47,998 nucleotides of DNA from a virus (Duplodnaviria > Heunggongvirae > Uroviricota > Caudoviricetes), in the IMG/VR virus record IMGVR_UViG_2687453188_000002, one strand, 5' to 3'. Both the position numbers and the translations under genes were made by a program. Each line of letters starts with the position of its first letter. Position 1 is the stretch's first letter. Below the pieces are notes generated by a model. The model did no database searches. It saw only the letters and a list, made by a program, of their open reading frames with translations, and was not told the origin of the DNA. This document shows positions 7,310 to 16,880 of the stretch, one piece after another.

Positions 7310-8002
7310 TTAATTGTGTCGCTTAAGGGTTTGTGACTGACTGATTAAGACCTTTCCAAAGACCATAAACCGATGTTCGTTTTCGCTGGTAATTCCCCAT
7401 TCGCGGTAAATCTGATTATCAGAAATTACCAGCAGTTTATCAGGTATCATTTGCAGTCGTTTGACGTAAATTTTATCATCAAAACCAAATACATATATAC
7501 CATCCCCATCAAACTGATTGATACTGATATCAACGAAGATGAGATCTCCTGGCTCAATGGTTGGACACATACTGTCCCCACGAACGTTGATAACTTTAAT
7601 GTGATTGGCTGGCCGTCCGCCAAACATCGATACAGCATTATCAGTTCTGTATTCAATGGCATGAATCACATCAATGACATCACCGCCCTGGATAAGGCCA
7701 TTTCCCGCACTGGCACTGACATCCAGCATTTCAATACGGAATACATCCTTCACCTGCGCAACATCCTCACCAATACTGTTTTTACATACAGTATTACTTT
7801 TGACGTCTGAGGTAAAGAGATCAGCGATATCAACACCTAAGCTCCTGGCAATATTACTCAGGGCTTGTTCAGTGAATTGTTTCTGCTTACCTGTTTCCAG
7901 GCGTGAGATATTCGCCGCATCCACTCCTATTGCTTCAGCGAGATCGGCGATTTTCATGTTCTTCGCCTGGCGAAGTTGTCTGACTCGGTTTCCTATGTTC
8001 AT
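7310..8002 (-). CDS. cI: CI-type repressor (HTH plus LexA-like S24 peptidase domain)
   Basis: 230 aa. N-terminal XRE-type HTH (VRQLRQAKNMKIADLAEAIGVDAANISRLETG) and C-terminal S24 signature (GDSMCPTIEPGDLIFVD ... KRL), divergent from cro. Confidence 0.85.
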   Translation of the reverse strand: MNIGNRVRQLRQAKNMKIADLAEAIGVDAANISRLETGKQKQFTEQALSNIARSLGVDIADLFTSDVKSNTVCKNSIGEDVAQVKDVFRIEMLDVSASAGNGLIQGGDVIDVIHAIEYRTDNAVSMFGGRPANHIKVINVRGDSMCPTIEPGDLIFVDISINQFDGDGIYVFGFDDKIYVKRLQMIPDKLLVISDNQIYREWGITSENEHRFMVFGKVLISQSQTLKRHN

Positions 8003-8360: not shown

Positions 8361-8910
8361 TCATCACTGGAAAGTGGAAAAACAGCCTGAGTGGTACGTG
8401 AAAGCTGTCAGAAAAACTATCGCGGCGTTGCCGGGGGGTTACGCTGAAGCTGCTGAGTGGCTGGATGTAACAGAGAACGCATTATTCAACCGCCTTCGTG
8501 CAGATGGCGATCAGATTTTCCCGCTGGGATGGGCAATGGTTTTACAGCGTGCGGCTGGCACTCACTACATTGCGGATGCTGTCGCACAGTCTGCTGGTGG
8601 GGTGTTCGTATCGCTTCCTGAAATTGAGGCAGTAGAGAACGCCGATATAAACCAGCGCCTGCTGGAAGTCATTGAACAGATCGGCAGTTATTCCAGACAG
8701 ATTCGTTCAGCAATCGAAGACGGTGTAGTGGAACCGCATGAGAAGACAGCAATTAACGACGAACTGTATCTTTCAATTTCGAAGCTCCAGGAGCATGCAG
8801 CACTGGTCTACAAAATCTTCTGCGCTCCAGAAAAGAGTAACGCCCGCGAGTGTGCAGCTCCGGGCGTCGTGGCGTCGATTGCTTCTGGTTGTGGAGAAAC
8901 TAACGCATGA
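8353..8910 (+). CDS. CII-like phage regulatory protein (CII/YdaT-type)
   Basis: 185-aa ORF right after cro with a GTG start behind an AGGAGG Shine-Dalgarno. Position is that of cII; family assigned by position and general resemblance only. Confidence 0.45.
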   Translation: MGNHHWKVEKQPEWYVKAVRKTIAALPGGYAEAAEWLDVTENALFNRLRADGDQIFPLGWAMVLQRAAGTHYIADAVAQSAGGVFVSLPEIEAVENADINQRLLEVIEQIGSYSRQIRSAIEDGVVEPHEKTAINDELYLSISKLQEHAALVYKIFCAPEKSNARECAAPGVVASIASGCGETNA

Positions 8911-10052
8911 ATAGTTTAACGGCAAATAACCGTTTGTCGCAACAGCTGGTGGTCAGCGTCGCTGAACACCTGTTGTTACGGCATGAATGCAGATTACCAA
9001 ATCACCTGGCTGTAAGTAACCACAGAGAACTTTACCTGACTGTGGGGGGCGAGTTGTGCAGGAACTTAACCGCTGGTTTCGTGACGGAAGAGGGCTTTAT
9101 GTCCATGTTATTCGTTGGGAGCCAGAAACACAGCGCGTTATCTATCTTCGCAAAGACTACCCGCATGAGTGCTTTAGTCCTTTGTGGAAATTCAGGCGTG
9201 ATTTTGTTGAGTGTGAAGGACCACCAGCATATTGATTCTGCAATTCCGGGACGTTACACTGTTCAGGCACCTTATAAAGCGGGTGCCGGGATTGGCGTCC
9301 TGAAATTCGCACATGCGCATAACCGCGCTTCAGCGGTTTTTTTGCGCACGTTTCCTCACATCCAAATTATGGTGGGGCGTGCAGGGGCATCGAAAGATGC
9401 GCCGGGGTCATGTGCGACCGGTTACGCCAACCCTGTACGTCTCACCACCTCTGTGATTGGCGTCCCATGTGGTGAGTTTTCAAAATTCGCACATGAGGAT
9501 GTCACTATGGCAACCACCCCTACCCAAACTCACCCTAAAATTGATGTTATCCATGGGAAGGCTGTTACCTCTTCTTTGGCCGTTGCCGAATATTTCTGCA
9601 AGCAGCACAAAAACGTTATTCAAAAAATCCAGACGCTTGAGTGCTCTGTTGAATTCACTGAGCTGAATTTTCAGCCCAGTGATTACACCGATTGCACAGG
9701 CCGCAAACTCCCTTGTTACCAAATCACCCGCGACGGTTTTGCGTTTCTTGCCATGGGCTTCACGGGGAAACGTGCTGCCCGGTTCAAAGAGGCATACATC
9801 AATGCCTTTAACCAGATGGAGAAACAGCTTTCAAATCCCTCTGTACTGAGCGACGTTGCACATAACGCCAGCGTTCTCTATTCCTACATTTCATCAATTC
9901 ATCAGGTCTGGCTGCAGCAGCTTTATCCCATGTTGGCAAAAGCCGAATCCCCGCTGGCTGTAAGTCTGTATGACCGCATCAACGACGCGGCGCTACTGGC
10001 CAGTCTCATAAATTTGTCGCTGAACCCTTCAGAGGTAAGGGGGCGCAAATGA
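8907..10052 (+). CDS. ORF with C-terminal Rha-type phage regulatory domain; N-terminal 200 aa of doubtful coding status
   Basis: ATG at 8907 overlaps the cII stop (ATGA). Residues from MATTPTQTHPKIDVIHGKAVTSSLAVAEYFCKQHKNVIQKIQTL (from about 9507) look like a Rha domain. The upstream part is low-complexity, contains direct repeats and a terminator-like hairpin, so the real Rha gene may start near 9507. Confidence 0.45.
   Translation: MNSLTANNRLSQQLVVSVAEHLLLRHECRLPNHLAVSNHRELYLTVGGELCRNLTAGFVTEEGFMSMLFVGSQKHSALSIFAKTTRMSALVLCGNSGVILLSVKDHQHIDSAIPGRYTVQAPYKAGAGIGVLKFAHAHNRASAVFLRTFPHIQIMVGRAGASKDAPGSCATGYANPVRLTTSVIGVPCGEFSKFAHEDVTMATTPTQTHPKIDVIHGKAVTSSLAVAEYFCKQHKNVIQKIQTLECSVEFTELNFQPSDYTDCTGRKLPCYQITRDGFAFLAMGFTGKRAARFKEAYINAFNQMEKQLSNPSVLSDVAHNASVLYSYISSIHQVWLQQLYPMLAKAESPLAVSLYDRINDAALLASLINLSLNPSEVRGRK
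9323..9343 (+). terminator. Possible short intrinsic terminator inside the 8907-10052 ORF
   Basis: ccgc-gcttca-gcgg followed by a run of 7 T. The stem is only 4 bp, so this is weak. Confidence 0.25.
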
Positions 10053-11579: not shown

Positions 11580-12232
11580 TGAGTAATAAATATTGCCAGG
11601 CGCTGGTGGAGCTGCGGAACAAACCAGCCCATGAACTGAAGGAAGTGGGCGATCAGTGGCGCACGCCGGACAACATTTTCTGGGGAATTAACACCCTGTT
11701 TGGCCCGTTTGTTCTGGATCTGTTCACTGATGGTGATAACGCCAAATGTGCCGCTTATTACACTGCGGAAGACAATGCGCTGGCGCATGACTGGTCAGAA
11801 CGTCTTGCGGAGCTTAAAGGTGCTGCCTTTGGTAATCCCCCGTACAGCCGCGCCAGTCAGCATGAGGGGCAATACATCACCGGCATGCGTTACATCATGA
11901 AACATGCCAGTGCTATGCGTGATAAAGGCGGGCGCTATGTTTTCCTGATCAAAGCTGCCACCAGCGAAGTGTGGTGGCCGGAAGATGCAGACCATATTGC
12001 TTTTATTCGCGGGCGTATTGGTTTTGAACTGCCTGCCTGGTTTATCCCGAAAGACGAAAAGCAGGTGCCAACAGGTGCTTTCTTCGCTGGTGCTATTGCT
12101 GTTTTCGACAAGACCTGGAAGGGACCGGCAATCAGCTACATAGGGCGCGATGAACTTGAGGCATGTGGTGAGGCGTTTCTGGCGCAGGTTCGCCAGCAGG
12201 CGGAAAAACTGGTCAGGGAGATGGCGGCATGA
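11579..12232 (+). CDS. Phage N6-adenine DNA methyltransferase (Dam-type)
   Basis: NPPY catalytic motif (AFGNPPYS) and typical phage Dam-family layout; ATG at 11579. Confidence 0.75.
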   Translation: MSNKYCQALVELRNKPAHELKEVGDQWRTPDNIFWGINTLFGPFVLDLFTDGDNAKCAAYYTAEDNALAHDWSERLAELKGAAFGNPPYSRASQHEGQYITGMRYIMKHASAMRDKGGRYVFLIKAATSEVWWPEDADHIAFIRGRIGFELPAWFIPKDEKQVPTGAFFAGAIAVFDKTWKGPAISYIGRDELEACGEAFLAQVRQQAEKLVREMAA

Positions 12233-12555
12233 CGACGTTAACTCAATGCCAGCAGCAGGTGCTGGATATGCTGATTTCTTATCAGAAAGAACGTGGCTTC
12301 CCGCCAACCAATCAGGAGGTGGCAACCATGCTGGGATACCGTTCGGTGAATGCAGCGGTGGAGCATCTTCGCGCACTGGAGAAAAAAGGCGTCATCACGA
12401 TAAAGCGTGGCGTGGCCCGGGGGATAACGCTTCATACTGCGATGAAGGACGACGACAGCGAGGCGGTCGGGATTATCCGCGCACTGCTTGCCGGTGAGGA
12501 AAACGCAAGGCTGCGTGCAACCCACTGGTTACATGAGAGGGGCCTGAAAGTATGA
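12229..12555 (+). CDS. LexA-like DNA-binding-domain protein lacking the S24 peptidase domain
   Basis: 108 aa. The N-terminal 70 aa align by eye with the LexA DNA-binding domain (LTxxQQxVxDxIxxxxxxxGFPPTxxExAxxLGYRSxNAAxEHLxALxKKGVIxIxxGxARGIxL); the ORF ends before any Ser/Lys peptidase domain. Confidence 0.6.
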   Translation: MTTLTQCQQQVLDMLISYQKERGFPPTNQEVATMLGYRSVNAAVEHLRALEKKGVITIKRGVARGITLHTAMKDDDSEAVGIIRALLAGEENARLRATHWLHERGLKV

Positions 12556-12947
12556 AGCTAATACTGCCTTTTCCGCCCAGCGTGAACACGTACTGGCGAC
12601 ACCCCAACAAAGGGGCGTTTGCTGGTAAGAGCCTGATAAGCGCGGCGGGGCGAAAATTCCAGAGCGCGGCGTGTGCAGCAATAGTTGAGCAGTTACGTCG
12701 TCTGCCGAAACCAACGTCGGCACCTGCTTCAGTGGAGATCGTGTTGTTTCCTCCGGATAACCGGATCCGCGATCTGGACAACTATAACAAGGCGCTGTTT
12801 GACGCCCTGACCCACGCGGGTGTGTGGGAAGACGACAGTCAGGTGAAAAGAATGCTGGTGGAGTGGGGACCGGTTATCCCGGAGGGGAAGGTCGAGATCA
12901 CTATCAGTAAGTACGAAAAAGCGAGTTGCAAATTAGCAACTCGGTAA
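12552..12947 (+). CDS. rusA: RusA Holliday-junction resolvase
   Basis: 131 aa with the RusA-family pattern (LPxPPSxNxYxR ... RDLDNxxKAxFDALTxAGxWxDDxQV). Confidence 0.8.
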   Translation: MKLILPFPPSVNTYWRHPNKGAFAGKSLISAAGRKFQSAACAAIVEQLRRLPKPTSAPASVEIVLFPPDNRIRDLDNYNKALFDALTHAGVWEDDSQVKRMLVEWGPVIPEGKVEITISKYEKASCKLATR

Positions 12948-12992
12948 CGGAATTGAGCAACACCCTAAATTTGGGTATTACCTCGTTAAAGA

Positions 12993-13012
12993 TACTGTAT
13001 TTATGAACAGTG
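12993..13012. promoter_or_regulatory. LexA (SOS) box upstream of the KilA-N gene
   Basis: tACTGTatttatgaACAGtg is a perfect CTGT-N8-ACAG match to the E. coli LexA-box consensus, about 100 bp upstream of the ATG at 13110. Confidence 0.65.
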
Positions 13013-13109
13013 TATCCTTGATAACTATTAAAAATCGCAGTAAGTTCATCCTGCATCAACGAAAAGGGAGTGCAGTCCCGCTCGTGGATAAAAATTTGTG
13101 GAGAAACCA

Positions 13110-13925
13110 ATGAATCAGTTGCTTGTAATTGATGGCGTTTCTGTGCGCCAGTACTTCGAATCTAACTACTGTCTTAACGACCTTCAGAAAGCTGCTCTTC
13201 TTGCCGCTGGTGAGAATCGCTCCTCCCGTTCGCTGGAAGTTCACGAGTTTATGCGTCGTCCTGAAACGAAGGCTCTTGTGGAATTATTGGAAGAAGAAAC
13301 TACGGGAGATTCCCGTAGTATTCCTGTCATCACCATTCAGGGGCGCAATGGTGGGACGTATGTCTGTAAAGAGCTGGTCTATGCATATGCAATGTGGATC
13401 AGCCCGGCATTCAGCTTAAAAGTGATACGTACTTTTGATGCGCTTCATAATTCATCACCAGAAGAAACCACATCCGACAAAATTAAATCCGGGGTCATTC
13501 TGCTTGAATCAGCAGCAAAGACTCTAAATCTGTCAAACTCCTCGAAACTTGGTGCATACCAGAAATTATCAAAGGTAGCTGGTCTTCCTGAACTTATGCC
13601 GATCTATGCCATTGATGCACCTGCTGATGCGCCAGATGGTTCAAGCCGCCCTACGCTGTCGCTGAGTGCACTGCTGAAGCAGTATGGTATCCGCCTGACG
13701 GCTAATCAGGCATATCACCAGATGGTGAAGCTGGGGATCGTCGAGCAGCGCGAACGATACAGCCGTACCGCGATTAACAACATCAAAAAATTCTGGTCGC
13801 TGACAGCGAAAGGCTGCATGTTCGGCAAGAACATCACCAGTCCCGCAAATCCGCGCGAGACGCAGCCGCATTTCTTCGAATCCCGATTCCCTGAGCTGTT
13901 AAAGCTGCTCGATACCGTTCATTGA
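13110..13925 (+). CDS. KilA-N domain protein (antirepressor-like)
   Basis: ATG at 13110 behind a GGAG Shine-Dalgarno. N-terminal region (IQGRNGGTYVCKELVYAYAMWISPAFSLKVIRTFDAL) resembles the KilA-N DNA-binding domain. Confidence 0.55.
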   Translation: MNQLLVIDGVSVRQYFESNYCLNDLQKAALLAAGENRSSRSLEVHEFMRRPETKALVELLEEETTGDSRSIPVITIQGRNGGTYVCKELVYAYAMWISPAFSLKVIRTFDALHNSSPEETTSDKIKSGVILLESAAKTLNLSNSSKLGAYQKLSKVAGLPELMPIYAIDAPADAPDGSSRPTLSLSALLKQYGIRLTANQAYHQMVKLGIVEQRERYSRTAINNIKKFWSLTAKGCMFGKNITSPANPRETQPHFFESRFPELLKLLDTVH

Positions 13926-13926
13926 G

Positions 13927-14922
13927 GTGACCGTGAGAGCACTACTGACCCCTGAAATTGCCCCGCGTATGGGGATCGTATTGTTCAGACCAGGTTCAGA
14001 GCTGATGCCCTTGTTTATGCAGGGGCGTGTCTTGCTGGAGCCTGAGCCGGAACGTTATTCATCTTTCGCCAGTGGTGCCGTTCCGGCGGCATCACAACCG
14101 CTGGCGGATGATCCTGCCGTTCGGGCCGTGTTCCGTAATGAGGCAGTGATCCGTCGTGCTGGTGGCGTGGAATGTCTTGAAAGCTGGTTACTTCGTGAAA
14201 AAGGCTGCCAGTGGCCTCATTCCGACTGGCACAGCGAGAACATGACAACAATGCGACACGCTCCGGGCGCAATCCGTTTGTGCTGGCACTGCGATAACCA
14301 GCTGCGCGATCAGTTCACGGAACGGCTGGAATCAATGGCAACGGATAACAGTGCCCGCTGGGTGTTGTCTGTTGTGCGTCGGGATCTCGGTTTTGATGAC
14401 AGTCATGTTGTGACAATGCCGGAACTGTGCTGGTGGCTGATTCGTAATGATCTGGCGGATGCCTTACCGGAAAGTGCAGCCCGTAAGGCACTGAGATTAC
14501 CGAAGCCTGTTGTGCCGTCTGTTACCCGGGAAAGTGACCTTGTGCCTTCGGTTCCTGCCACCAGCATCATCCAGGATAAGGCGAAAAAGGTGCTGGCGCT
14601 GAAAGTGGATCCGGAGTCGCCGGAGTCTTTTATGTTACGCCCCAAACGTCGCCGCTGGGTTAATGAAAAGTACACGCGCTGGGTTAAGACGCAGCCGTGC
14701 GCATGTTGTGGAAAACCTGCTGATGATCCCCACCACCTGATAGGTCACGGTCAGGGTGGAATGGCTACAAAAGCGCATGACCTCTTTGTGTTGCCTTTGT
14801 GCAGAAAGCATCACGACGAGCTGCATGCGGATACCGTGGCATTTGAAGAGAAGTATGGCTCCCAGCTGGAGCTGATATTTCGTTTTATCGATCGTGCACT
14901 GGCAATTGGCGTGCTGGCCTGA
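13927..14922 (+). CDS. DUF968-like prophage protein with C-terminal Cys/His cluster
   Basis: 331-aa ORF. C-terminus (CACCGKPADDPHHLIGHGQGGMATKAHDLFVLPLCRKHHDELH) is like DUF968 proteins of E. coli prophages. Start codon uncertain (GTG at 13927 or a downstream ATG). Confidence 0.5.
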   Translation: MTVRALLTPEIAPRMGIVLFRPGSELMPLFMQGRVLLEPEPERYSSFASGAVPAASQPLADDPAVRAVFRNEAVIRRAGGVECLESWLLREKGCQWPHSDWHSENMTTMRHAPGAIRLCWHCDNQLRDQFTERLESMATDNSARWVLSVVRRDLGFDDSHVVTMPELCWWLIRNDLADALPESAARKALRLPKPVVPSVTRESDLVPSVPATSIIQDKAKKVLALKVDPESPESFMLRPKRRRWVNEKYTRWVKTQPCACCGKPADDPHHLIGHGQGGMATKAHDLFVLPLCRKHHDELHADTVAFEEKYGSQLELIFRFIDRALAIGVLA

Positions 14923-14936
14923 TTTTGTGGAGAAAG

Positions 14937-15281
14937 TTGATGCGTGATATGTATGAAGTATTGGACCGCTGGGGTGCATGGGCTGCAGCAGATAACAGTG
15001 GTGTGGACTGGCAGCCTGTTGCTGCAGGGTTTAAAGGTTTACTACCTCATGGAAAGAAAACACGCCAACAATGCGATGATGATGAAGGAATCATGATTGA
15101 CAGCTGTGTTGCGCGATTGCGGAAATATAAGCCCGAAGAGTATGAGTTGGTTATTGCTCATTTTGTTATCGGCATCTCACTAAGAACTATTGCAAAGAAG
15201 CAGAAGTGTTCTGATGGGACAATAAGAAAAGAGTTGCAAACAGCTCTTGGTTTTCTGGATGGTGTGCTTTCAATGTTGTAA
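14937..15281 (+). CDS. Late-gene antiterminator Q (small QuuD-type)
   Basis: 114 aa from ATG at 14937 behind a GGAG Shine-Dalgarno. Pattern RWGAWAA ... AAGFKGL ... CDDDE ... CSDGTIRKEL resembles the DLP12 QuuD-type family as I recall it. Confidence 0.65.
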   Translation: MMRDMYEVLDRWGAWAAADNSGVDWQPVAAGFKGLLPHGKKTRQQCDDDEGIMIDSCVARLRKYKPEEYELVIAHFVIGISLRTIAKKQKCSDGTIRKELQTALGFLDGVLSML

Positions 15282-15293
15282 TATTAGGGGGAA

Positions 15294-15842
15294 TTACCCC
15301 CCTTTTTTTCTCTGTTGCTTTAATAAAATTTTAATATTTTGTCTGATTATGATGAGGCAATGTAATAAAAGAAATACCGTTAGTATTGCAAGCCATACGC
15401 AAAATAAGCATGCATATAAATTAGTTGAAAGTCCAATAGTGAATTGTGCAATTGCTGTTGTGATAGAACATAATATTGATGTATTAATAAATGAGGATAA
15501 ATTGTCTAAAGGTTTATAAAGTACACTATCATTGATTTTGTCAATAGGTATACCAGTGGCAATGCTATAAATTTCCTTATATTCCTGAGTTGCAAAAACC
15601 TTATCGCGTAAATTTATTATAACAAAGGTATGCAGGCTCAATAAAAATGAGCCCACGGAAATAAAACCGGAGAAGAGATAGCCTCGTAAGTTTTTATGAT
15701 AAAAATCAAAAAAGTTAACACTTACTTTAGGTGTGTTTCTGTACAATAGGTAAAGTGCAAGCAATGCCAGGATCGAGAATGCAAGCAGTGTAAGGTACTG
15801 ATACCTCAATCTTTTATTTATTAGCCATTCATATAAAGGCAT
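15294..15842 (-). CDS. Hypothetical multi-pass membrane protein, second gene of AT-rich cassette
   Basis: 182 aa with about four hydrophobic helices (YLTLLAFSILALLALYLLY; LFSGFISVGSFLLSLHTFVIINL; ILCSITTAIAQFTIGL; LYACLFCVWLAILTVFLLLHCLIII). Its ATG (15840-15842) lies 11 nt before the upstream gene's TGA, a 14-nt overlap. Confidence 0.6.
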   Translation of the reverse strand: MPLYEWLINKRLRYQYLTLLAFSILALLALYLLYRNTPKVSVNFFDFYHKNLRGYLFSGFISVGSFLLSLHTFVIINLRDKVFATQEYKEIYSIATGIPIDKINDSVLYKPLDNLSSFINTSILCSITTAIAQFTIGLSTNLYACLFCVWLAILTVFLLLHCLIIIRQNIKILLKQQRKKGG

Positions 15843-16755
15843 TTTTATTCGTCCCGTTCAGCATTTCTTCTTTTATCATATCAAAAACAGGGTTTGTTGT
15901 ATAATTATCGTTTGTCAATCCATTGACTTTATCGGCAATTATATCGAAATCGTATGTTTCAAAAAAAACAGGGCAGTTCATAAAATCAATGGTTTTTTCT
16001 ATTCCTGCATGGTTTACTGCAATAACCTGTGCTTTAGCAACTCCACTCATAGAATTATAAATATTTGAAAGATTCTGAGATAGTTGTTGCACTTTTGTTC
16101 TGTCGCTAGAATTAAAATTCATATCTATTGTGGTGGTGTTAACAAATTGTTCAAGCGCAGTCATTGGTCCACCTTTAAAATCTATATAATTAAATTTAAA
16201 GCTTGTGCTTTTAATCTCTTTGAATTGACATAAAACACTCTGAATGTTGTTTTTATTTGTCATAAGGCTGAAAGTCAGTCTTTCTTTGTATTTTTTATTT
16301 ATTGCAGTTACTTCTTTTTGTTTTGGTTTATCACCAAGTTTTTTTATTTCTTCTTTATTTTGATTTCTGATAAATTCATTACTTATTGTTTCTAAATGAG
16401 AAAAGAGAGTGTTCAGACTGCATGAACCGTGGTGATACATATAGAGACCAGAAAGATTAGATTTTTTAATTAAGAAAAAGTTGAAATTAGCAAGTTTGTC
16501 ACTTCCTTGAAGATCTTCAATTTTAAGCTGGAATTTACCATCAACAAATTGCGACTTACAGTTCTTTTTTTGGTTTCTGAATGTGACAACTAATCCATAA
16601 TAGAAATCATTCACATCCGAAATGAGAATTTTACGAGTATAGTCTGTGCGACTGTGTTCTCTGTTTGATGCGTTGATAAAAGCATTCATTACGTCAACGG
16701 TATTAATATTTTTGTTATTGTTATTTATTGTAAATCCTATGCTTCTAACTTTCAT
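15829..16755 (-). CDS. Hypothetical Asn-rich soluble protein, first gene of AT-rich two-gene cassette
   Basis: 308-aa ORF, ATG at 16753-16755. Strongly AT-rich and Asn/Lys-rich codon usage unlike the surrounding phage genes. No Walker, HD or other motif recognised. Confidence 0.6.
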   Translation of the reverse strand: MKVRSIGFTINNNNKNINTVDVMNAFINASNREHSRTDYTRKILISDVNDFYYGLVVTFRNQKKNCKSQFVDGKFQLKIEDLQGSDKLANFNFFLIKKSNLSGLYMYHHGSCSLNTLFSHLETISNEFIRNQNKEEIKKLGDKPKQKEVTAINKKYKERLTFSLMTNKNNIQSVLCQFKEIKSTSFKFNYIDFKGGPMTALEQFVNTTTIDMNFNSSDRTKVQQLSQNLSNIYNSMSGVAKAQVIAVNHAGIEKTIDFMNCPVFFETYDFDIIADKVNGLTNDNYTTNPVFDMIKEEMLNGTNKNAFI

Positions 16756-16880
16756 GTGTATTCCAGGACCGACTAAAGATAGCGAGAATGGGGACGCATA
16801 GTTTATAAAAATCCTAACGCGTACGCAAAAAGTATTATATCGTGTTAAGAGTGGTTACTTCGCCACACAACTTAAACCCG

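Follow-up and report, generated by a model that had tools for sequence, protein, structure and literature searches.

A candidate LexA operator before one kilA-N allele and a separate LexA-like gene in lambdoid prophages of Escherichia coli

The stretch of DNA analysed here (the window) comprises 47,998 nucleotides of a tailed phage (Caudoviricetes; IMG/VR record IMGVR_UViG_2687453188_000002) and, across the region discussed, is identical to a lambdoid prophage of Escherichia coli O104:H4, for example in strain 2011C-3493 (NC_018658, ~2.16 Mb). Its early-right genes follow the order cI, cro, CII-like, Ash/Rha, a replication gene, PerC-like, dam, LexA-like, rusA, spacer, kilA-N, DUF968/HNH and Q (Table 1). 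Two elements are the subject of this work, namely the LexA-like gene, which encodes a protein of 108 amino acids, and a LexA (SOS) box in the spacer before kilA-N. An earlier note made from the sequence of the window had joined both into one SOS-linked module, and the gene order that it described (LexA-like, rusA, kilA-N) is the one that we find. The rusA start overlaps the stop codon of the LexA-like gene by 4 nt, and rusA stands between the LexA-like gene and the box. The kilA-N gene lies outside the immunity region, in the nin region, and has a LexA box upstream, as do LexA-gated phage antirepressor genes.

The box, TACTGTATTTATGAACAGTG, combines a perfect palindromic core with an AT-rich spacer and agrees with the 20-mer consensus at 16 of 20 positions. 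The earlier note had placed it about 100 bp before the KilA-N gene, and the distance from the end of the box to the RefSeq start, an ATG preceded by GGAG at 13100-13103, is indeed 97 bp (85 bp to an alternative GTG at 13098). The whole 48-kb window was scanned with a weight matrix for which 30 LexA sites of E. coli served as training set, and absolute scores are approximate. The kilA-N box scores 22.6 bits, within the range of known SOS sites (13.2-28.4 bits for the training sites), against a best score of 19.4 bits in 50 shuffles of the whole window. The same scan, which the earlier note had proposed as a check, returned two further strong boxes, and CTGT-N8-ACAG occurs six times in the window against 0.66 expected. 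A chance match of such quality within 162 bp is very unlikely, and the observation holds up and is no product of chance. An E. coli variant of 97% identity has the box unchanged, and the copy in phage SfIV reads TACTGTATTTATGAACAGTA. Paper searches found no report of LexA control of KilA-N genes, or of binding or induction at the kilA-N box.

Most carriers of the cassette have no such box. A 1.7-kb query from the cassette (dam, LexA-like, rusA, kilA-N, DUF968, Q) was compared with complete E. coli genomes and phages and matches 2323 of the 5426 genomes, together with the phages SfV, SfII, SfIV, mEp460, cdtI, Ayreon, Kati and the Stx2a and Stx2c phages. Full query cover, including the 162-bp spacer with the box, is reached in only 186 genomes and in phages SfIV and PhiR49_1. 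Seven related phage genomes were also scanned and hold 1-4 strong LexA boxes each; among the scanned genomes, the kilA-N box is found in the window, SfIV and PhiR49_1. A spacer of 19 bp without a box separates rusA from kilA-N in SfV, SfII, mEp460, cdtI, Kati and Stx2a_1447, and the long spacer and the box are both missing from about 92% of the E. coli cassettes that hold the LexA-like gene. The two alleles differ in a mosaic patch at ~12948-13350, which spans the spacer and the KilA-N N-terminal domain. The N-terminal third of KilA-N is ~47-52% identical to the common allele, and the remainder has ~91% DNA identity. A dip in GC content (42-46% at 12900-13500 vs 52-57% in the flanks) coincides with the patch.

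A comparison with other genera covered 80 homologous KilA-N loci from other species as well as four orthologue contigs. LexA-type palindromes of at least 14 bits lie 50-200 bp upstream of KilA-N homologues at five loci vs 0.13 expected (Poisson P = 3e-7), where the expectation was taken from the rest of the same loci and that background is mostly coding sequence. The enrichment in several genera argues for selection. The strongest boxes occur in Edwardsiella (19.2 bits), Erwinia (16.1 bits) and Serratia (14.2 bits), at loci where the LexA-like gene was not found within 1.5 kb upstream, which points to host LexA as the likely ligand. The locus L088 of Citrobacter freundii has a box of 17.9 bits, on a contig too short to judge the presence of the LexA-like gene. 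Long rusA-kilA spacers (at least 93 bp) nearly always hold a LexA-like palindrome, and short-spacer loci hold none. The order LexA_DNA_bind, RusA, spacer and KilA-N is syntenic in Escherichia, Citrobacter, Kluyvera, Cedecea and Leclercia, and the nearest orthologues (Citrobacter farmeri, Kluyvera, Cedecea, Leclercia; 72-80% protein identity) keep the synteny, the promoter and the leader. The proposal of a single SOS-linked module is not supported by these distributions, with the box spacer in 186 of the 2323 cassette genomes and the best boxes of other genera at loci without a LexA-like gene. Judged by their occurrence, the LexA-like gene and the kilA-N box are two independent mosaic elements, each of them real.

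The 108-amino-acid protein matches Pfam LexA_DNA_bind (PF01726) over residues 1-65 (E = 2.9e-19), and the Pfam search gave no Peptidase_S24 match. The protein aligns to residues 2-86 of E. coli LexA, and phmmer retrieves 1LEA and 3JSO at 1e-15. Equivalents of Ser119 and Lys156 are absent because the chain ends at residue 108. The AlphaFold (AF2) model, with a confidence (pLDDT) of 81, consists of the LexA winged helix-turn-helix (HTH; residues 1-68) followed by a C-terminal helical hairpin of two further helices (75-87 and 93-102). Over its first 66-69 residues, the model fits onto the LexA DNA-binding domain (Foldseek; 3JSO DNA complex and 1LEA) with a root-mean-square deviation of 0.9-1.2 A and 49-52% identity. 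The description of this protein as a LexA DNA-binding domain without peptidase, given by the earlier note, is thus borne out by domain, alignment and fold. The residues by which LexA contacts DNA are Ser39, Asn41, Ala42, Glu44 and Glu45 (PMC3091678). Four of the five are kept (S39, N41, A42, E45), and position 44, here Val, is variable across the LexA-like family. The family corresponds to PHROG 362, members of which reach ~40% identity at the same length with the same C-terminal helical hairpin.

Judging from its sequence, the protein cannot undergo RecA-mediated self-cleavage. The modelled helical C-terminal domain may mediate dimerisation, and occupation of LexA boxes by the protein is plausible given the conserved contacts. 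The pair Ala-Gly at residues 88-89 lines up with the cleavage site of LexA (Ala84-Gly85). Cleavage in trans by LexA/RecA* was considered and dropped since the Ala-Gly is not conserved in close relatives, which have AN or VG. The position of the gene in the pR operon suggests expression only in lytic growth. No study of the LexA-like protein family was found in the literature, and the related phage genomes scanned showed no palindrome shared by every phage that has the gene. The protein appears to be a separate, widely conserved delayed-early phage regulator that is not specifically coupled to the kilA-N box. In an exhaustive protein search, several proteins of 140-350 amino acids (P0252, P0253, P0267, P0268, P0273 and others) match the LexA-like query in two separate stretches. 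Such proteins may carry two LexA-type DNA-binding domains per chain, which would make dimerisation unnecessary.

The spacer holds further elements that bear on how the box might act. A palindrome at the 3' end of rusA lies just upstream of the box and lacks a T-run on the + strand. Two promoter candidates were read around the box, neither of which passes a strict consensus promoter scan. The downstream element is conserved, and the box ends 5 bp upstream of its -35. In a spacer alignment of 11 genera, positions 1 (T) and 2 (A) of the -10 are invariant and the T at position 6 nearly so, and the TTG of the -35 is present in most rows. As read from the sequences, the palindrome overlaps the -10 in Erwinia, Rahnella and Serratia and abuts the -35 in E. 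coli and Kluyvera. In the Erwinia locus L059, it overlaps a promoter reading TTGCCA-17-TATATT.

The leader downstream of this promoter contains a hairpin whose loop, (G/T)TGCAG, is conserved across genera, with stems that differ yet stay complementary (GGGA/TCCC, GGCGG/CCGCC or CGGGC/GCCCG by genus, and a 12-bp stem in Erwinia). The hairpin is flanked by GCGAAAC on one side and by the ribosome-binding region GTGGAGA on the other. The evidence for it comes from our own stem search with control windows, in which it was found at 21 of the 80 homologous loci vs 83 of 2374 control windows. Long-spacer and 19-bp-spacer alleles carry it alike (for example SfV, L003 at ~2197-2212; also L013-L098). An Rfam search of the spacer gave nothing above noise, and the hairpin is without an Rfam family. 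RNAalifold returned no structure from an alignment in which MAFFT had misaligned the variable stems, and in single-sequence folding the stability of the leader was not above that of shuffles. The conserved hairpin points to a further, previously undescribed layer of post-transcriptional control on KilA-N genes.

Table 1. Coordinates of the box, the spacer elements and the genes discussed.
Feature	Position	Strand	Description
LexA (SOS) box	12993-13012	.	Perfect CTGT-N8-ACAG core at 12995-13010
Palindrome	12922-12943	.	8-bp stem; 3' end of rusA, just upstream of the box
Candidate upstream promoter	12953-12981	+	TTGAGC-17-TATTAC; read from the sequence; E. coli/Shigella allele only
Conserved promoter-like element, -35	13018-13023	+	TTGATA; 17-bp spacer to the -10
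Conserved promoter-like element, -10	13041-13046	+	TAAGTT
5'-leader hairpin	13059-13085	+	ACGA..GGGA-[GTGCAG]-TCCC..TCGT; conserved loop, covarying stems
rusA to kilA-N spacer			162 bp, non-coding; holds the LexA box
cI	7310-8002	minus	HTH and Peptidase_S24
dam	ends 12232		Directly before the LexA-like gene
LexA-like gene (108 amino acids)	12229-12555	+	PF01726; PHROG 362
rusA	12552-12947	+	Holliday-junction resolvase; Pfam PF05866, RefSeq annotation
kilA-N (271 amino acids)	13110-13925	+	Pfam PF04383, E = 1.3e-15
DUF968/HNH gene	13927-14922	+	Pfam PF06147
Q antiterminator gene	14925-15281	+	Pfam PF06530

The KilA-N protein consists of a KilA-N domain (residues 1-114), a helical linker, a disordered stretch (158-180) and a C-terminal alpha/beta domain (182-270) in the AF2 model. 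A Pfam search found the KilA-N domain only and no ANT or AntA domain, and the C-terminal 150 residues had no Pfam match at E up to 1. Foldseek returned KilA-N/APSES folds only, from phage and poxvirus KilA-N proteins and weakly from Mbp1, and sequence and fold searches of the PDB with the C-terminal domain gave weak winged-helix-like matches and no antirepressor. With PADLOC, the KilA-N domain gave only a weak domain-level match to a candidate system. The N-terminal domain is 37% identical to P1 KilA and 43% identical to Ant of the P22-like phage Emek, in which a homologous KilA-N N-terminal domain sits on a gene annotated ant at the immI locus. This gene is the sole link to antirepressors, and the antirepressor-like label of the earlier note finds no other footing in these searches.

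The transcription unit downstream of the box is compact. The open reading frames of kilA-N, DUF968/HNH and Q are joined by gaps of 1-2 nt, and a terminator scan places the first strong terminator past kilA-N at 15286-15310, directly after Q. Because the three genes are contiguous and the terminator comes only after Q, a kilA-N transcript would probably include Q, and the three genes are probably co-transcribed. The CI of the prophage has an HTH and an S24 peptidase domain with GDSM and KR motifs and looks cleavable, in agreement with the cleavable CI-type repressor posited before. Since the S24 domain is intact, an antirepressor is not needed for SOS induction. Fels-1 induction is attributed to cleavage of a CI-type repressor, yet this prophage carries a DNA-damage-induced antirepressor acting in trans on Gifsy-2 (PMC3121763). 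Fels-1 thus indicates that a cleavable repressor and an antirepressor can coexist.

We suggest that box, promoter and structured leader form a small regulatory insert that would give this nin-region kilA-N allele its own damage-responsive transcription. In most relatives, kilA-N would be transcribed only by read-through from pR. In the lysogen, host LexA would hold the kilA-N promoter region down, and upon RecA-stimulated LexA cleavage kilA-N would be transcribed independently of CI. DUF968/HNH and Q follow without gap or terminator and would probably be co-transcribed after LexA cleavage. A damage-induced transcript through Q might then provide a CI-independent route to late-gene antitermination. 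The LexA-like protein probably binds LexA-box-like palindromes and could re-occupy such sites in lytic growth.

We put the probability that 12993-13012 is an operator of host LexA, giving a damage-responsive kilA-N promoter, at about one half. Several observations weigh against it. The box is centred near -50 of the conserved promoter, which is not where a repressing site usually lies. The alternative upstream promoter, use of which would place the box at about +5 to +24, matches the consensus at 8 of 12 positions, under the threshold of the consensus scan. The E. coli/Shigella allele is ~98-100% identical throughout, and conservation within the allele is therefore uninformative. The closest orthologous spacers have a degenerate box (Kluyvera GGGTGTATGCATGAACAGTG, 8.4 bits; Citrobacter farmeri and Cedecea, <8 bits), and because these orthologues keep promoter and hairpin, a strong LexA site is not required for the kilA-N gene. 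Finally, an SOS-driven transcript reaching Q would be dangerous to the lysogen unless weak or attenuated. LexA control looks like a recurrent but dispensable input to the KilA-N gene. The decay of the box in the nearest orthologues is also what would be expected if the box was functionally inert, either as a relic of recombination or as a site that binds LexA without effect on kilA-N expression. LexA sites placed upstream of the -35, as this one is, have been reported without effect, strong matches exist in the phage family without clear promoter context, and the boxes in the cI linker and the methylase gene described below lie in coding sequence, where repression is not obviously possible. 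We regard an inert box as rather unlikely, however, given how improbable it is that 162 bp would match so well by chance, and given the selection for which the palindromes before KilA-N homologues in several genera argue.

The palindrome might instead be primarily an operator of the phage LexA-like protein, which would repress or, like gp6 of phage GIL01, activate the kilA-N promoter in lytic growth, with the resemblance to a host LexA box a by-product of the shared ancestry of the two DNA-binding domains. The synteny of LexA_DNA_bind, RusA, spacer and KilA-N in five genera is in keeping with such a role. Syntenic loci often read nTGT-N8-(A/C)CAG, in which one side lacks the outer C, and such a one-sided palindrome is poor for LexA and could suit a protein in which E44 is replaced by V44. 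A site near -50 that abuts the -35 is also in an activator-like position, and gp6 activates from -43.5 (PMC6182141). The box cannot be the main target of the LexA-like protein, though, when ~92% of E. coli cassettes lack it. The best boxes before KilA-N homologues stand without a LexA-like gene, and the E. coli box is near-consensus for host LexA. We consider this role for the palindrome unlikely. We find it quite improbable that KilA-N is a LexA-gated antirepressor inactivating CI of its own or of co-resident prophages, with the LexA-like protein tuning SOS timing at LexA boxes. Gifsy GftA/GfoA are established cases of LexA-gated antirepressors encoded away from the immunity region, the strain is polylysogenic, Fels-1 combines CI-type cleavage with a damage-induced antirepressor acting in trans (PMC3121763), and the Emek immI gene annotated ant has the homologous N-terminal domain. 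Against this stand the missing sequence or fold similarity to characterised antirepressors in Pfam, PDB and fold searches and the small size of the known LexA-gated antirepressors, compared with 271 amino acids and two putative nucleic-acid-binding domains in KilA-N. CI has a cleavage domain of its own, and the common allele is without LexA control, so that the core role of KilA-N would not be SOS sensing.

A more far-reaching possibility concerns the 108-amino-acid protein as an uncleavable LexA surrogate. Dimerising via its helical tail, it would re-occupy LexA boxes in lytic growth and shut down the host SOS regulon and the LexA-gated genes of rivals (antirepressors, colicins, dinI genes). 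The box of the phage itself would give kilA-N/HNH/Q a CI-independent SOS pulse, later silenced by the surrogate. The cassette carrying the LexA-like gene is found in prophages of about 40% of E. coli genomes. We hold this surrogate role to be quite improbable.

If the box works as an operator of host LexA, DNA damage would switch on a nin-region operon ending in Q without prior removal of CI. A lambdoid prophage whose repressor is itself cleavable would thereby have a second, direct SOS input. Stx2a and Stx2c phages, Shigella serotype-converting phages and the cdt phage carry this cassette too, in most cases without the box, and regulation of the kilA-N cassette hence bears on the induction of toxin phages. 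Few uncharacterised regulators are as common in E. coli prophages as the LexA-like protein. Should it bind LexA boxes, it would be a phage device overriding the host SOS response, with cross-talk to other prophages.

The kilA-N box would be a variant of a Gifsy-type arrangement, a probable host-LexA operator on one nin-region allele. Gifsy-1, -2 and -3 have a LexA-controlled dinI-antirepressor operon with a CI-independent SOS transcript (Lemire, Figueroa-Bossi and Bossi 2011, PMC3121763). Common to both are the lambdoid prophage, the LexA box with a promoter (here a candidate one) that lies past the replication genes and not in the immunity region, and the palindrome that precedes the box, which is terminator-like in Gifsy and is represented here by the one at 12922-12943. 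The genes under control differ, with a dinI homologue and a small antirepressor in Gifsy and here a KilA-N protein unrelated to GftA/GfoA. CI here has an S24 domain, whereas cleavage plays no part for the Gifsy repressors, and the transcript considered here would continue into Q. A further LexA-repressed phage gene that couples the SOS response to prophage behaviour is tum of coliphage 186, which encodes a small antirepressor without KilA-N domain in a P2-like phage with a non-cleavable CI. The relation of KilA-N to antirepressors was judged by Pfam, PDB and fold searches, without direct comparison with the Tum or GftA sequences, and none was found. P1 KilA and Emek Ant share the N-terminal KilA-N domain with our protein, and their C-terminal domains are unrelated. 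P1 kilA is part of the lytic replicon, Emek ant is controlled by Mnt/Arc at immI, and neither record annotates LexA control.

The LexA-like protein has the same fold as the E. coli LexA fragment 1-84 and keeps four of its five DNA contacts. In the cell, the N-terminal fragment left after LexA self-cleavage is monomeric, binds weakly and undergoes degradation. What sets the phage protein apart is a conserved helical extension that may give dimerisation, along with an Ala-Gly that is not conserved in the family. The closest precedent, and the only characterised analogue that we found, appears to be gp6 of GIL01, a truncated LexA homologue that activates a late promoter via a palindrome unlike the LexA box (Fornelos et al. 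2018, PMC6182141). Both proteins are truncated LexA homologues, and gp6 also comes from an early gene. However, gp6 belongs to a tectivirus of Gram-positive hosts, and the 108-amino-acid protein belongs to lambdoid phages with Q-dependent late genes and has an additional conserved two-helix C-terminal domain.

Other LexA boxes occur in the window and its relatives. The best box of the window, TACTGTTTTTACATACAGTA at 7774-7793 (26.0 bits, 17/20 to consensus), lies inside cI and covers codons of the HTH-S24 linker (NTVCKNSI). Phage mEp460 shares this cI allele and carries an identical box, which the other cI alleles examined do not have. A box of 24.3 bits, TACTGTAAAAATATCCAGTT at 17383-17402, falls within codons 3-9 of a gene for an N6/N4 DNA methylase (17375-18424), past the likely pR'. 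SfV, mEp460, Ayreon and cdtI have TACTGTAAAAATAAACAGTG at this place, and among viral (IMG/VR) contigs the box is at the gene start in 78 of 80, in six LexA-compatible variants. The idea that all three boxes in the window act as operators whose presence goes together with the LexA-like gene was considered and rejected, since the methylase box occurs without the gene in 16 of 25 informative contigs, the box in cI is confined to one allele and the best KilA-N boxes of other genera occur without the gene. In mEp460 (L008, 23255-23302) and cdtI (L010, 26720-26767), two adjacent boxes of 21-23 bits lie just upstream of a dinI-like gene, which looks like a classical SOS-regulated arrangement.

Further features lie on either side of the cassette. 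One open reading frame of 381 amino acids (8907-10052) joins a Phage_ASH domain (residues 117-211) to a Rha domain (221-306), and near its 5' end is another perfect CTGT-N8-ACAG (9010-9025) with a GC-richer spacer and a low matrix score. An insert of two genes with ~30% GC occupies the minus strand at 15294-16755, bounded by the terminator that follows Q and by the likely pR'/tR' region, where terminator-like sites lie at 16880 and 16932. The insert encodes proteins of 308 and 182 amino acids, for which we found no Pfam match below E = 0.1 and no PADLOC match. The first matches PHROG 2802 (function unknown), and for the second, a hydrophobic sequence predicts association with the membrane. Homologues of the insert occur at the same place in cdtI and Stx2a_1447. 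Farther downstream, genes for tRNA-Ile, tRNA-Arg and tRNA-Arg (18474-18725) are followed, with no toxin genes in between, by a SASA-family carbohydrate esterase (19216-21069), an order of tRNA genes and esterase that we take to be the late-region layout of Stx phages.

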